The notes beneath the pieces are model-generated. The model worked only from the letters and a program-made list of their open reading frames with translations. It had not been told where the DNA came from and did no database searches. Made by a program: the position numbers and the translations under genes. A stretch of 64,000 bases of DNA, from NCBI GenBank assembly GCA_038227875.1, contig JBBRPR010000008.1, forward strand, positions 1 to 64,000, given 5' to 3'. This document shows, one piece after another, positions 17,600 through 31,931 of this stretch; the stretch's first letter is position 1; the number at the start of each line of letters is the position of its first letter. Source of the stretch: Planctomycetota bacterium. GTDB taxonomy: Bacteria > Planctomycetota > SZUA-567 > H5-PLA8.

Positions 17600-18634
17600 T
17601 TGGAATCCGCCATCGCACAACAGAATCCGCCGGCTTCAGGCTTTGGTCTCCGAAGCCTGCGGCGTATCGGCGCGATCGCCAGTTTGACGGCGACGGAAGG
17701 CTTGCGACAGCCGTCGTTTTTTCTGCTGCTCTTTGTCACCGCGGCGTTGATCGGACTGTCGCCGCAGTTTTCGTTCTTCCATCTCGGCGAAGAAGCGAAG
17801 ATGGTGACCGACCTGGGCCTCTCGACGATCCTGACTTTTTCGACCTTGCTGGCGCTGCTCACGGCCAGCAGCACGGTCACCGATGAAATTGAAGGGCGCA
17901 CGGCGCTGACGATGCTCTCCAAGCCGCTGCGCCGCGAGGAATTTCTGCTCGGCAAGTATGTCGGCGTGGCGGTCACGGCCTGCACGCTGGCGGCGGCGAT
18001 GGGGCCGGTACTGCTGGTAACGTTGCGCAGCCAGAATGTGCTCTCAGCGCTGGACTCGTATTTCAATCTGGCGTTCGGGATTGCGGCGATGGTAGGCGTC
18101 GCGCTGTTTGGGCTGCAGATGGTGGTGAAACTGCTGCTCGGACGGGGCCTCTCGTTGATTCATGCATTCTGGGTGTCGTACGCGGCCGCCACGGTCTGCA
18201 TCTTCGCGATTCTTTCCGTGAAGTCCGTGCCGCAAGTGACGTGGGATTGGCGGCTGCTGATCGGCATCTTCTTTATCTGCCTGCACGCCTGCGTGGTCTC
18301 GGCGATGGCCGTCGCGCTGGCGACGCGCTGCAGCCTGGTGCAGACGTTCATCGGCACGGCGGCATTCTTCATTGTCGGCCATGCCTCCGGAGCGCTGGTG
18401 GCACCCTTCCGCGACGAGCAGCATCACCTGTCGGTGCTCGGCAGCGTGATCCGCGCGGTGCTTCCGGATCTCGATCAATTCAACATTACCGACGCGCTGG
18501 CGACGGCGTTCATGGACAAAGCCGTGGCGATACCAGTGGATGTGGTTGTGGGCTCGACGATTTACGCGTTGTTTTACGGCACGGCGCTGCTGGCACTGGC
18601 GGTGGTGCTGTTCCGCAAGCGTGAGTTAGGTTGA
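17600..18634 (+). CDS. ABC-2 type transporter permease
   Basis: Multiple TM helices; DEIEGRTALTMLSKPLRREEFLLGKY. Confidence 0.85.
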   Translation: MESAIAQQNPPASGFGLRSLRRIGAIASLTATEGLRQPSFFLLLFVTAALIGLSPQFSFFHLGEEAKMVTDLGLSTILTFSTLLALLTASSTVTDEIEGRTALTMLSKPLRREEFLLGKYVGVAVTACTLAAAMGPVLLVTLRSQNVLSALDSYFNLAFGIAAMVGVALFGLQMVVKLLLGRGLSLIHAFWVSYAAATVCIFAILSVKSVPQVTWDWRLLIGIFFICLHACVVSAMAVALATRCSLVQTFIGTAAFFIVGHASGALVAPFRDEQHHLSVLGSVIRAVLPDLDQFNITDALATAFMDKAVAIPVDVVVGSTIYALFYGTALLALAVVLFRKRELG

Positions 18635-18682
18635 GTGACGCGACTTTTAAGAGACGGGTATGGGTGACAATGAGCAAGCCAA

Positions 18683-19255
18683 TTAGTTCGGATTGGAGCT
18701 TGTAGGTGGGATGAACGGTTGGCGGGTTGGGTCCAGGAATTCTCGACGAGTACGAGATTCAAGGAGGGTATCTAAACTGCCGCCATCACGAATCCAAAGC
18801 CGTTCAGATTCGTAGACAGGAATCACCTCAACTAACTCAATTCGTCTGAACCCGAGATCTATAACTAGGTTTTTGGAAGAGACGGAAATTGGATGAGTGA
18901 CGAAGAATCCGTTCATTCGTGAGGACTCGGAAATTGGCTCGCGGAAATTTATAGTGTCACCGCAGACAAACGGGCATTCCTCGCGAAGCTGATAAGCAAT
19001 TTCGCCACATGCCAACGCCCACGCGTGATCAGCTGTACGCATAGAGATCATCAGTTCTTTGTGCCCTCCACCATCAGGGTGGAAATGAGAAAGACCAAAA
19101 GTGAAGCCTGTGATCGTGCCCTGTTCGGGAAAACCGGCATAGAGAAGAACTTGAATTGCAGGAGACGTGTGGTCTGGGCTAACTTTATAGGCAAAAATGT
19201 ATTCTGTACCCGTGATGCGTTCAAAGTGGCTTAACAGCTTCTCCGCCGGATCCAT
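18683..19255 (-). CDS. Suppressor-of-fused (SUFU)-like domain protein
   Basis: FTFGLS, HKELMI, GDTI, VIPVYESE motifs; low GC; GGAGA RBS. Confidence 0.75.
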   Translation of the reverse strand: MDPAEKLLSHFERITGTEYIFAYKVSPDHTSPAIQVLLYAGFPEQGTITGFTFGLSHFHPDGGGHKELMISMRTADHAWALACGEIAYQLREECPFVCGDTINFREPISESSRMNGFFVTHPISVSSKNLVIDLGFRRIELVEVIPVYESERLWIRDGGSLDTLLESRTRREFLDPTRQPFIPPTSSNPN

Positions 19256-19393
19256 TTAGGTTCTCCGTTTTCTGCAACCCATAATATTGTTTTTGAAGTT
19301 ATAGCATGACGGTATTCAGCTCGCTGAGCAAGGAGCAAGCAAATGATCACTTGCTCCTTGTCGCGATGAGTCTTCGCGAGTTCTTTGCGCAAC

Positions 19394-19448
19394 GCACGGA
19401 TGAACAGACGCTTTCACTACGCTCAAGTGTCTGCGCATCCATCGCACC
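19394..19448. repeat. 55-bp REP-like hairpin repeat, copy 2
   Basis: Aligns without gaps to 26-80. Confidence 0.75.
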
Positions 19449-19534
19449 AGCTACGGTCTTTGAAATTTGAATTTTTAATTCCCCCCTCGCGGCTATAATC
19501 CACTCTTCAACTTGGGCGCGAGAGGATTTGATCG

Positions 19535-20761
<1,227 letters not shown>

Positions 20762-20985
20762 GCGCGCTGACGCGCGAGGGGTCAGGGGTCAGGGGCCAGG
20801 GGTCAGAGGTTGGCGTGCGCAGGGTAGGTACGCAGCCATAGAGCGCGTTGGATCGCTCGACTACTTTCTGCCTGGTGCCTTCTGCCTTCTTGCCACGACT
20901 GCGCAAGACCTCATCGAATTTCACCGTGCACAACTCTCCTCTGACCCCTGGCCCCTGACCTCTGACCCCTCGCGCTTTAGCGCGC
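20762..20985. repeat. MITE-like element with 48-bp terminal inverted repeats of (GGGGTCA)n heptamers
   Basis: 20762-20809 and 20938-20985 are reverse complements with 3 mismatches. Confidence 0.8.
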
Positions 20986-20992
20986 GTGCCGC

Positions 20993-22177
20993 ATGAGCGA
21001 CAAAGCGCCGCGCGTGTTGTTGCTGCACAATCGCTACCGGCAGCCGGGCGGTGAGGACGCGATTGTGCAGGCGCAGGCGCAATTGTTGCGCGATCGCGGG
21101 CATGCGGTGCGGGTGTTTGAAAAAGACAATCGCGAAATCGACGGCTACGGGCTGGCGCGCAAGGGGATGTTGTTTCTGGAGATGTCCGGAAACTCACGGT
21201 CGGCAAAGGAAGTCGACGAGATCGCGCAGTCGTTCAAACCCGATGTCGCGCTGATTCACAACACGTTGCCGCTCTTGAGTCCCTCCGTTTACGCGCCGCT
21301 CAAGCGCCGGAACGTGAAGGTGATTCAGTATCTGCACAACTTCCGCCTGGTCTGTCCGGCCGGCACGCTGTTTCGCGACGGTAAGGCTTGTACGCTCTGC
21401 GTTGACGACGGACTGAAACACGCGGTGACGTACCGTTGCTGGAGCAACTCCACGTTTGCCACGCTGGGTGTAACGCGGATGCTCGATCGGCATCGCCGCG
21501 CGCGGACGTGGCACACGCAGGTCGATCTGTTTGTCGCGTCGAATAAATATCAGCGCGACATCTTCGTCAAAGCCAACGTGCTTTCCGAAAGTCGGATCGT
21601 CGTACAGCCGAATTTTCTCCTGCAGCCCCCAGATCTCGGTGAAGTGAACGCGGGAAGCGGTTTCGTTTTTGTCGGACGACTGACGCCGGAGAAGGGCATC
21701 GAGACGTTGCTGAAAGCGGTGGCTTCGCTGAGCGGTGTGAGGCTGACGGTGATCGGTGACGGGCCGCTGCGCGACAAACTGGCCGCTTCGGATCGCGTGG
21801 AGTTCCTCGGGCAGCGTCCGAAGGAAGAGGTCCTCGCGCGCGTGCAGGCAGCGCGCGCGGTAGTGGTGCCGTCGGAGTGGCATGAAGGCTTTCCGCTGAC
21901 GGTGATCGAAGCGATGATGATGGGCCGCCCGGTGATCGCGTCGCGGATGGCCGGGCCGCTGGAAATCGTGCAGGAAGGCCAGACGGGGTTGCTGTTCGAC
22001 GCGGGGAACGTGGAGCAGCTTGCGGGGTGTCTGCGCAGGCTCGAAGACGATCCGAAACTGGCGGAGGAGTACGGTCGGGCAGGGCGGGGGCGCTTTGATC
22101 AGGAATGTTCGCCCGACGCGGGATACCGGCGGATGGTTGAAAATTTTGAGCGAGTTGGGTGTCCTAAAGGCTTGTAA
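20993..22177 (+). CDS. Glycosyltransferase family 4
   Basis: HNRYRQPGGE, FVGRLTPEKG, PSEWHEGFPLTVIEAM..GRPVIAS. Confidence 0.92.
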   Translation: MSDKAPRVLLLHNRYRQPGGEDAIVQAQAQLLRDRGHAVRVFEKDNREIDGYGLARKGMLFLEMSGNSRSAKEVDEIAQSFKPDVALIHNTLPLLSPSVYAPLKRRNVKVIQYLHNFRLVCPAGTLFRDGKACTLCVDDGLKHAVTYRCWSNSTFATLGVTRMLDRHRRARTWHTQVDLFVASNKYQRDIFVKANVLSESRIVVQPNFLLQPPDLGEVNAGSGFVFVGRLTPEKGIETLLKAVASLSGVRLTVIGDGPLRDKLAASDRVEFLGQRPKEEVLARVQAARAVVVPSEWHEGFPLTVIEAMMMGRPVIASRMAGPLEIVQEGQTGLLFDAGNVEQLAGCLRRLEDDPKLAEEYGRAGRGRFDQECSPDAGYRRMVENFERVGCPKGL

Positions 22178-29370: not shown

Positions 29371-29868
29371 ATGGCGAAAGCACGCAAACTCACCCATCTG
29401 GATCAACACGGCCGCGCTCGCATGGTCGATGTCGGTGACAAACCGTCCACCAGCCGTGCGGCGCTGGCCGAAGCCACGGTGCTGATGGATCCCGAAACGC
29501 TGGCGCTGATCACGCGCAAATCGGCGCGCAAAGGCGACGTGCTCGCCGTGGCGCGCGTGGCGGGAATTCAGGCCGCCAAGCGCACCGACGAATTCATTCC
29601 GCTCTGCCATTCGCTGGCGCTGACCAGCGTCACCGTCGACTTCGATACGCCGAACGAAAAAGCGTTGCACATTCTCACCCGCGCGCGCTGCAAGGGCGAG
29701 ACGGGTGTCGAGATGGAAGCGCTGATGGCCGCGAGCGTCGCCGCGCTGACCGTCTACGACATGTTGAAGGCCGCCGACCGCGGCATGGAAATTACACAAG
29801 TCCGGCTGCTGGAGAAAAGTGGCGGACGCAGTGGCGAATGGAAGCGCGGCAAGACCAAACGCAAGTGA
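29371..29868 (+). CDS. moaC: Cyclic pyranopterin monophosphate synthase
   Basis: [42 protein letters not shown]. Confidence 0.96.
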
Positions 29869-29913
29869 CCATACTGCGTTGACGCCACGGTGTAAGTCTC
29901 CTAATCTAACCGT

Positions 29914-29939
29914 AGCGGCTCGGGTTGAGCCGCTTTTTT
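29914..29939 (+). terminator. Intrinsic terminator after moaC
   Basis: AGCGGCTC-gggtt-GAGCCGCT followed by a T run. Confidence 0.75.
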
Positions 29940-29984
29940 AGTCGCGTGCGGTTTTTCGCGCGCCATGCATGTCAGGAGTCGTCG

Positions 29985-31931
29985 ATGGGCCTGCTCGAAG
30001 ATCTGGAATCCCTGCGCACCGCCGCCGTCGCGGCCTTTGCATCCGCTCAAAACAAGGAAGCGCTCGAAGCTGTGCGCGTCGAATACCTCGGCACGCGCGG
30101 CAAGTTGAAGTCGGCGCTCGGCCGTATGGGCGAAGTTTCCAAAGAGCAGAAACCGGTCGTCGGCAAGCGCGCCAACGAGCTCACCACCGAACTGCAGGCC
30201 GCGTTCGATGCCGCGAAAGCGCGCGTCGAGGCATCGGCTCCGGCCGGCACCGTGCCGGGAAGCGGCGAAGGTTCCAGCCTGGAGCAACTGCGCTTCGAAC
30301 GCCTCGACAAGCTCAAGAAGTACGAAGAGAAGATCGGGCCTGGTGCAGCGTGGGGATCGCGCTTCCCGGACCGCACCAGCGGCAAGTCGATCACCTCGAT
30401 TGGAGCGACTCGCAAACTCTTTCCCACCTTCCGCGCCGAAGAGAATATGGGCGACGGCACCAAGAAATTCGGCACCGTCGTTCTCGCCGCGCGCGTGATG
30501 TTGCGTCGCGACCAGTCGAAGAAGCTGATTTTTCTGACGGTGCAGGATCAGACCGGGTCGATCCAGGTCGCACTGTGGAACAACCTGCTCAACGAGGAAA
30601 GCCTGGCGCTGCTGCGCGACACGCTGGACCTGTGGGATATTGTCGGCATCGAAGGCGAGTTGATGTACACACAGAAGGGCGAGCCGACCGTGTGGGCGAC
30701 GAGCGCGCGGATCCTGACCAAATGTATTGCACCGCCGCCGGACAAGCACCACGGCATCCACGACAAGGAAATCCGCTACCGGCACCGCTACCTCGATCTG
30801 ATCTCATCGCCGGAATCGCGCCATGCGTTCATTCTGCGTTCGAAGACGATCGCCGGCGTGCGGCGCTTCCTCGATGCGCAGGGATTTCTGGAAGTGGAAA
30901 CGCCCGTGCTCCAGACGATTCCCGGCGGCGCCGCGGCGCGGCCGTTCGAGACGAAACTCAACGCGCTAGACATGCGCATGTACATGCGCATCGCCACGGA
31001 AATCGGCCTGAAGAAGGTGCTCGTCGGCGGGCTGGAGCGCGTGTATGAACTCGGCCGCATCTTCCGCAACGAGGGCTTGAGCCCGAGGCACAATCCTGAA
31101 TTCACGATGATCGAGATCTACCAATCGTACGGCGATTTGCGCGACATGATGGCGCTGATGGAAAACCTGATCAGCCATCTGGCCGAAACGCTGACCGGCT
31201 CGACGACCGTAATGTTCCGCGGCAAGCAGGTGAAGCTCGGCGCGCCCTGGCCACGCTTGGAATACACGGAGCTCCTGAAACAGCACGCCGGCGTTTCGCA
31301 CGACGACATTGCGGGACTCGACGCCAAGCTGCGCGAGAAGGGCATCGATCCGTCGGGGCTGTCGCACGTCGACAAGATCGACGGCGTCTTTGGCGAATAC
31401 GCGGAACCGCATCTTCAGGACGCGTGCTTCGTGATCAATCAGCCCGTCGAGATGAGCCCACTGTGCAAGGCGCATCCGGTCAACCCGAAACTCGCCGACC
31501 GATTCGAAGCGTTTGCGTCAGGCATGGAAATCGGCAACGCGTACACCGAACTCAATGACCCGATCGAGCAGCGCAAGCGGCTCGTCGAACAGGCCAACGA
31601 CGCCGCGAAGCATGCATTCAAGCAACTCACGGACGCGGGCTTGCTGGATTACGTCAAAGTCGAAGCGTCGGACGCCGAATGGGTCGACAAGGCCAAGAAG
31701 GCGATCGAAGCGATTCCCGCGAGCGACAAACGCCGCGCGAAGCTCGCCGAGCTGGCGAAGCACACGCACGCCGTCGACCAGCGCGTTGACGAGGACTTCC
31801 TCAACGCGATGGAACACGGCATGCCGCCGGCGGGAGGCCTCGGGATCGGCATCGACCGCATCGTGATGCTGCTGGCCAGCGCGGATTCAATCCGGGACAT
31901 TATTTTGTTCCCGCTGATGCGGCCGGAGTAG
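29985..31931 (+). CDS. lysS: Class II lysine--tRNA ligase with N-terminal PheS-like coiled coil
   Basis: OB fold, RYRHRYLDL, FLEVETP, GGAAARPF, GRIFRNEG..HNPEFT, EIGNAYTELNDP, GMPPAGGLGIGIDR; AGGAG RBS. Confidence 0.95.
   Translation: MGLLEDLESLRTAAVAAFASAQNKEALEAVRVEYLGTRGKLKSALGRMGEVSKEQKPVVGKRANELTTELQAAFDAAKARVEASAPAGTVPGSGEGSSLEQLRFERLDKLKKYEEKIGPGAAWGSRFPDRTSGKSITSIGATRKLFPTFRAEENMGDGTKKFGTVVLAARVMLRRDQSKKLIFLTVQDQTGSIQVALWNNLLNEESLALLRDTLDLWDIVGIEGELMYTQKGEPTVWATSARILTKCIAPPPDKHHGIHDKEIRYRHRYLDLISSPESRHAFILRSKTIAGVRRFLDAQGFLEVETPVLQTIPGGAAARPFETKLNALDMRMYMRIATEIGLKKVLVGGLERVYELGRIFRNEGLSPRHNPEFTMIEIYQSYGDLRDMMALMENLISHLAETLTGSTTVMFRGKQVKLGAPWPRLEYTELLKQHAGVSHDDIAGLDAKLREKGIDPSGLSHVDKIDGVFGEYAEPHLQDACFVINQPVEMSPLCKAHPVNPKLADRFEAFASGMEIGNAYTELNDPIEQRKRLVEQANDAAKHAFKQLTDAGLLDYVKVEASDAEWVDKAKKAIEAIPASDKRRAKLAELAKHTHAVDQRVDEDFLNAMEHGMPPAGGLGIGIDRIVMLLASADSIRDIILFPLMRPE

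Follow-up and report, generated by a model that had tools for sequence, protein, structure and literature searches.

The lysS locus and its product

The window, comprising the first 64,000 nucleotides of the forward strand of contig JBBRPR010000008.1 (assembly GCA_038227875.1, Planctomycetota bacterium), contains a lysS gene whose predicted product opens with a helical arm of the type that begins the alpha subunit (PheS) of phenylalanyl-tRNA synthetase (PheRS) and continues, behind a short linker, as a lysyl-tRNA synthetase (LysRS). The parts of the gene are listed below in window positions, with residues numbered on the LysRS product (P0001).

29985..31931, + strand: lysS, encoding a 648-aa class II lysyl-tRNA synthetase (P0001) with a PheS-type arm at its N-terminus; stop codon included
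29985..30236, + strand: PheS-type helical arm (residues 1-84; predicted helices 3-20, 24-35, 40-50 and 56-83/84)
30237..30275, + strand: Gly/Ser/Pro/Ala-rich linker (residues 85-97), variable in sequence and length among homologues
30276..30338, + strand: the usual LysRS N-terminal helix (residues 98-118; helix 98-117 in the AlphaFold2 model), at which the shared LysRS structure begins
30477..30716, + strand: OB-fold anticodon-binding domain (residues 165-244; PF01336, E 5e-14)
30762..31928, + strand: class II catalytic domain (residues 260-648; PF00152, E 2.5e-82, in two stretches)
31617..31778, + strand: lineage-specific helical insertion before motif 3 (residues ~545-598; ~50 extra residues, length variable)

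The arm matches the Pfam family Phe_tRNA-synt_N (PF02912) over residues 22-85 with 66.8 bits (E 1.6e-18), well above the cut-off of 22.3; the score is 71.1 bits (E 7.4e-20) with the first 120 residues alone and 72.6 bits in a six-frame scan of the genome. A first-pass annotation, made from the sequence alone, had proposed a PheS-type N-terminal arm on this LysRS and quoted the motif R..YLG..G...G...N; the profile match bears this out, the motif is present, and 29985-30230, to which the arm had been assigned, encodes arm residues 1-82. Against the PheS of the same genome the arm aligns gap-free from Met1 over residues 1-79, with 44% identity and 76% positives (E 3e-22). When the arm was used to search PDB sequences, 10 PheS alpha sequences and one weak unrelated match (E 0.69) came back, and a profile built from the arms returned the same 10 PheS alpha sequences, again with one weak unrelated match.

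The predicted fold agrees. A full-length AlphaFold2 model (66 homologues) has a mean predicted local distance difference test score (pLDDT) of 90, with helices 3-20, 24-35, 40-50 and 56-83 of the arm at 91-97 and the arm overall at 87-97, while the linker (residues 84-97) is of low confidence, with a pLDDT of 63-71 that drops to <50 at residues 89-92. Folded alone, the arm reaches a pLDDT of 87.2 and superposes on Mycobacterium tuberculosis PheRS alpha in its tRNA complexes with a TMq of 0.71-0.79 and a root-mean-square deviation (rmsd) of 1.6-1.9 Å over ~80 columns, and in a Foldseek search with this arm-only model ranks 1-18 are all PheRS alpha. As modelled, the arm is the alpha1-domain fold of PheRS alpha.

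The body behind the linker scores as a full-length lysine--tRNA ligase with the NCBIfam model TIGR00499 (500.5 bits, cut-off 427.6) and also exceeds the cut-off of NF001756 (540.1 bits against 468). Motif 2 (R361 N362 E363 G364) and motif 3 (G618 G620 G622 D624 R625) are invariant in 66 aligned sequences, which comprise 47 of the 53 arm-bearing protein clusters described below (all except P0010, P0033, P0037, P0043, P0045 and P0056) and 19 of 67 arm-less ones. All 50 chains listed from solved LysRS structures align with the model only from residue 96-101 on (VIA-align), with Z 35.7-39.3 and rmsd 2.6-3.7 Å over 443-486 residues. The gene is the single match above the lysS_bact cut-off in the genome, and neither a second LysRS nor a class I LysRS was found in it, an absence not proven by an assembly that is 88.1% complete. 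The sequence comparisons thus predict the housekeeping class II LysRS of this planctomycete, lysylation being supported indirectly by its being the only LysRS found. Two other identities were considered and rejected. As a PheS the protein scores only 24.2 bits with TIGR00468 (cut-off 237.45), and a 22.5-bit match to PF01409 at residues 353-401 is a class II core cross-match that the arm-less LysRS proteins P0054 and P0049 also give; as a LysX it scores 445.5 bits with NF002821 (cut-off 742), and its N-terminal part is PF02912, not MprF.

The earlier description of an otherwise normal LysRS after the linker stands in part: the LysRS is complete, but it carries the insertion of ~50 residues before motif 3. 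Family models split at this point (in NF001756, residues 542-593 fall between model positions 433 and 440), and between reference positions 540 and 602 there are 62 residues here against 9-12 in 16 of the 19 arm-less LysRS. Of 47 arm-bearing homologues, 44 have an insertion of 49-138 aa and three (P0047, P0048 and P0050) have none, nor has any of the 19 arm-less LysRS compared. Its mean pairwise identity is 0.22, and residues ~545-598 gave no family match.

Two features upstream of the gene bear on its start and its separation from its neighbour.

29974..29978, + strand: Shine-Dalgarno-like AGGAG, 6 nucleotides 5' of ATG 29985, read from the sequence
29914..29940, + strand: terminator-like hairpin with T-run (stem 29914-29934, 9 pairs, then TTTTT), 3' of a moaC-like open reading frame (ORF)

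The hairpin sets the moaC-like ORF (29371-29868) apart from lysS, whose neighbours in the window are this ORF and a repeat protein. The program-made ORF extends upstream to TTG 29925; because a start there would traverse the hairpin, and because every homologue begins with MxLL(D/E)DL, ATG 29985 is taken as the start. Arm and body lie in one ORF with a good ribosome-binding site, as had been noted at first sight.

Reality, distribution and descent of the fusion

PF02912 is combined with the OB domain and/or the class II core in 53 of 120 protein clusters listed, at 53-100% identity and from several sources; the named sources among them are all labelled Planctomycetota, and the public label is simply lysine--tRNA ligase. 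Seven metagenome-assembled genome (MAG) records encode relatives at 61-74% identity, six of which span residues 1-648, and the seventh (L013) starts at residue 58, where the end of its contig cuts it. A 691-nucleotide contig from run X1, which may be the source sample, matches 29800-30425 with zero differences, and a 325-nucleotide contig from run X2, which belongs to a different study, covers 30081-30402 with four differences and spans arm, linker and LysRS N-terminal helix. In the one RNA run the contigs cover only 30719-30800 and are uninformative on expression of the arm.

That the fusion is an artefact of assembly or binning, in which the 5' end of a pheS was joined to lysS, was named at the outset as what would overturn the first-pass annotation. 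The window does come from a fragmented assembly of 176 contigs, and no support for such a chimera was found beyond this; against it stand the recurrence of the same junction in the 53 clusters listed and the seven MAG records, the contig from another study that bridges 30081-30402, and the separate full-length pheS elsewhere in the genome. Furthermore, a misjoined copy of that PheS would not differ from it as the arm does, at only 44% identity. The probability left to a chimera is negligible.

Two side observations concern the integrity of individual records. P0049 (602 aa, 62% identity), encoded on a contig of 2282 nucleotides, has no arm and begins at the LysRS N-terminal helix, and is either a truncated gene call or a real arm-less variant inside the clade. 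Genome G013 has two copies of the LysRS arm (L039 and L040 on contigs C226 and C364) that are one residue apart and each broken where a contig ends. This points to an assembly that collapsed at lysS through strain heterogeneity.

The distribution of the fusion was followed by scanning whole genomes in six frames with PF02912, covering the family-level clade of the window's genome (family f1, 17 genomes with the window's own counted), a further 24 genomes from the class and an even sample of 301 genomes from the phylum. A second arm, in addition to that of PheS, is present in 15 of the 17 family f1 genomes; in 13 of them it lies in open frames of 671-779 aa, and in G011 and G013 the frame is cut by contig ends. 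The remaining two, G005 and G010 (83% and 91% complete), have a single arm and no lysS match at all, and are uninformative. The search for the fusion in relatives that the first-pass annotation had called for found it in these 15 genomes as well as in the 53 clusters listed. The 24 genomes of the class from outside family f1, among them the unpublished genome G017, the sole member of family f2, showed no second arm, and families f3 and f5 have canonical LysRS genes encoding about 500-530 aa.

In the phylum sample, second matches occurred in seven of eight family f1 genomes and in two others, G270 and G290. Both of these were rejected as fusion candidates, the former having two PheS-size frames and the latter a PheS and a SerRS cross-match (PF02403, 88.2 bits); G080, G198 and G071 were likewise rejected, being ordinary PheS behind long GC-rich open frames. 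The SerRS arm in G290 (L073:490-1797, - strand, contig C201) scores 27-30.6 bits with PF02912, above the cut-off, so a second PF02912 match in a genome is not always a PheS-type arm. Beyond these genomes, 1.84 billion representatives were searched with residues 1-165, giving 1761 matches at E <= 0.001. Short fragments make up most of the 150 listed, and the long forms among them that join arm and LysRS (P0036, P0056) all belong to the window's family; no other long fused form appears among these 150 of 1761 matches, which is weak evidence against a fusion outside the phylum.

Two trees were built from the arms, both without the second G013 copy, G017 and seven outgroup genomes. In a tree of 48 arms, whose alignment ran beyond the arm end, the 15 LysRS arms form one group with support 99/97. 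In an arm-only tree of 80 columns, from which two long-branch PheS rows had been dropped, the group has support 94/90 and occurs in 94% of bootstrap trees. The subgroups G009/G013/G015/G016 and G006/G012 recur in the LysRS-arm and the PheS-arm parts of the trees, which fits vertical co-inheritance; G014 joins G006/G012 in the 48-arm tree, and its PheS row is among those absent from the arm-only tree. These sequence comparisons support a single origin of the fusion and its vertical descent within one family-level clade. The LysRS arms have a mean identity of 0.437 to the PheS arms of family f1 against 0.308-0.361 to those of families f3, f4, f5 and f7, and it is by mean identity only that a same-family donor is favoured. 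Most likely, the donor was the duplicated 5' end of a pheS of the same lineage, fused to lysS in the family ancestor. The domain shuffling between two synthetases that had been proposed is an apt description, the arm being homologous in sequence and predicted fold, and the fusion being real and inherited.

Constraint on the arm and its proposed function

Among the 47 arm-bearing homologues aligned, the mean pairwise identity of the arm is 0.58, equal to that of the LysRS N-terminal helix (0.58), against 0.20 in the linker, 0.78 in the OB domain and 0.75 in the core. Within the same genomes the LysRS arms (mean identity 0.552) and the true PheS arms (0.597) are about equally divergent. Ten positions reach at least 80% conservation among 31 PheS arms (M1, L3, A14, L27, E28, R31, G36, G39, G60 and N64), and at each of them at least 80% of 15 LysRS arms carry that residue. 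These comparisons show, as far as conservation can tell, that the arm has been kept under constraint throughout family f1.

The same figures bear on whether the arm does anything at all. It could be a tolerated passenger, left by a one-off duplication and fusion that became fixed in the family ancestor and without any role in aminoacylation: the fusion is limited to one family, related planctomycetes use a canonical LysRS of ~500 aa, and the very proteins that carry the arm tolerate a large and poorly conserved insertion. However, a passenger would have to account for an arm that is intact in all 15 family genomes in which lysS was found, that persists in the 53 clusters listed down to 53% overall identity, whose identity is far above the 0.20 of the linker and the 0.22 of the insertion, and whose rate of evolution is about as low as that of the functional PheS arm in the same genomes; no frameshifted or decayed arm was seen. 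An idle arm is therefore unlikely. Far less probable still is the suggestion in the first-pass annotation that the LysRS-borne arm serves, in trans, a PheS without an arm of its own. The check proposed with it, whether the pheS of this genome retains its arm, shows that it does, which refutes the suggestion for this genome. Exactly two PF02912 matches are present in the six-frame scan of the genome, one in lysS and the other in a 351-aa PheS on contig C23, of which both the arm (58.7 bits) and the core (299.9 bits) are normal, and the PheS-type arm is present above the cut-off in all 16 other family f1 genomes. What may be said in favour of supply in trans is that one of these genomes, G014, has a very divergent pheS arm region of foreign composition. 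It scores 23.6 bits (L043, G014:C2:1234664-1234960) against 55-66 in genus mates, in a near-complete genome, and has a GC content of 0.44 where its kin have 0.67-0.72; past the arm, the gene resembles its relatives once more. The region gives the impression of a stretch within pheS that was replaced or is foreign.

The explanation that fits best overall, and is held to be on balance probable, is that a PheS arm of single origin and from the same lineage sits on the housekeeping LysRS and works as a tethered clamp on the elbow of tRNA-Lys. The coiled coil of PheRS is assigned to tRNA-Phe binding in one source (PMC3275996), and another describes hydrogen bonds from the M. tuberculosis PheRS arm to G19/U20 through Arg45, Arg56 and Asp37 and to C56/G57 mainly through Asn64 (PMC8136816). 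The profile of the arms aligns with the M. tuberculosis chain from 5-85 to 5-85 with zero offset; because start and end coordinates are identical, N64 is mapped to M. tuberculosis Asn64 and K56 to Arg56. For human LysRS, it is reported that the 70-aa N-terminal domain 'facilitates tRNA binding' and forms a helix that is fixed at the T-loop and follows the anticodon arm (PMC11643047). In the structural alignment, residue 97 of the model corresponds to human LysRS residue 71, at the end of that domain, so the PheS arm and linker topologically replace it.

By this mechanism, the arm would be an extra tRNA-binding module, tethered by a flexible linker of ~13 residues ahead of a complete LysRS. It would hold the outer corner (elbow) of tRNA-Lys in the way that the PheRS arm grips G19/U20 of the D-loop and C56/G57 of the T-loop, while the OB domain would read the anticodon and the core would charge the acceptor end. 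The expected outcome would be higher tRNA affinity (a lower Km) with unchanged specificity. The extra tRNA affinity that had been proposed for the arm is plausible.

Several observations weigh against this explanation. On the question of descent, neither tree places the LysRS-arm clade among the PheS arms beyond class level. The clamp function is read from homology and position only. Unlike the Lys-rich eukaryotic extension, the LysRS arms are not basic, with a mean net charge of -0.3 (-2 to +1) over 15 of them against +1.4 in 16 PheS arms of family f1. Of the six tRNA contacts named for M. tuberculosis, two are kept, Asn64 identically and Arg56 as Lys; the residues at 32, 37, 45 and 57 differ, and these four positions are not conserved among PheS arms either. 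The PheRS arm, moreover, works within an (alpha-beta)2 assembly in which each tRNA touches all four chains (PMC8136816), whereas LysRS is a dimer without that geometry. As the pLDDT of the linker is low, the AlphaFold2 model is no reliable guide to how the arm lies with respect to the body. Finally, the D-, variable and T-loops of tRNA-Lys(CTT), the isoacceptor compared, are the same in 22 genes (17 from family f1 and 5 from the outgroup), so the tRNA side gives no sign of a new contact.

Three side observations concern the tRNA genes. The 3' CCA of tRNA-Lys(CTT) is not encoded in the window's genome (L081) or its nearest relatives and is encoded in remoter members of family f1 and in the outgroups. 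Contig C25 of genome G000 (18394-21337, outside the window) has a tight cluster of tRNA-Phe-GAA, Lys-TTT, Lys-CTT and Asn-GTT genes with unusual sequences that are unlike the canonical copies of the genome, possibly a tRNA array of mobile-element or phage type. Among the Aragorn calls in the genome are one tRNA-Pyl and two tRNA-SeC.

The arm might instead bind something other than tRNA-Lys, as a module for protein-protein contacts or for another RNA, tethering LysRS to PheRS or another partner in a small synthetase complex or binding an RNA such as its own mRNA. Domains appended to aminoacyl-tRNA synthetases often mediate protein interactions, as stated in PMC6794377; the arm is slightly acidic, tRNA-Lys is unchanged, and conservation by itself leaves the ligand unspecified. 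Set against this, the sole role documented for the domain in the two PheRS sources is binding of the D-loop and T-loop of tRNA (PMC8136816, PMC3275996), the residues conserved in PheS arms, N64 included, are all kept, and no partner gene is linked to lysS, beside which lie the moaC-like ORF and the repeat protein. A ligand other than tRNA-Lys is thus improbable, and an elbow clamp on tRNA-Lys is the preferred function.

Comparison with known systems

No description of a LysRS with a PheS arm was found in the full-text literature searched, most subscription journals lying outside its coverage. For LysRS, the accessible text of a survey of >2500 prokaryotic genomes mentions only fusions to MprF (PMC5388404). 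Such LysX or MprF-LysRS fusions, the other known type of bacterial LysRS fusion, resemble the present protein in that an extra N-terminal part precedes a class II LysRS; the present protein has no MprF membrane domain, and its gene is the sole, housekeeping LysRS found. The closest relative of the arm itself is the N-terminal domain of PheRS alpha (PF02912), with which it shares homologous sequence, predicted fold, signature residues and a position at the extreme N-terminus from Met1. Here, however, the domain is carried by a class IIb LysRS (OB domain and tRNA-synt_2 core), without a beta subunit, and is slightly more acidic.

SerRS, also a class II synthetase, likewise begins with a long helical arm that binds tRNA, a coiled coil (PF02403) that serves the long variable arm of tRNA-Ser. 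This coiled coil belongs to another Pfam family, and the LysRS arm scores only with PF02912. In chain position the nearest counterpart is the eukaryotic LysRS extension of about 65-70 aa, also a helical appendage ahead of the anticodon-binding domain, but no sequence homology was seen between the two, and here the appendage is a folded four-helix arm of PheS origin. The human extension is Lys-rich and disordered without tRNA, and the same source states that prokaryotic LysRS lack it (PMC6213541). A tentative reading, with less in its favour than the clamp itself, is that a bacterial lineage has reinvented the eukaryotic LysRS solution by means of its own duplicated PheS arm, set at the same point of the chain as the eukaryotic tRNA-binding helix, and that the additional grip on tRNA-Lys may have allowed the large, fast-evolving insertion by motif 3.

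Appended tRNA-binding domains have been seen mainly as a habit of eukaryotic synthetases, and here a stable, constrained arm is found on the only LysRS of a bacterial family. If the proposed reading is true, no earlier case has been described in which the PheRS arm moved to a different synthetase, and the fusion would be nature's own experiment on modular tRNA affinity. It would also offer a testable case in which two synthetases exchanged a module and bacteria converged with eukaryotes. Furthermore, a putative natural and portable elbow-binding module could interest those who engineer pairs of synthetase and tRNA. A synthetase with an appended tRNA-binding module is a known type, of which the PheS arm on a bacterial LysRS is a new variant.

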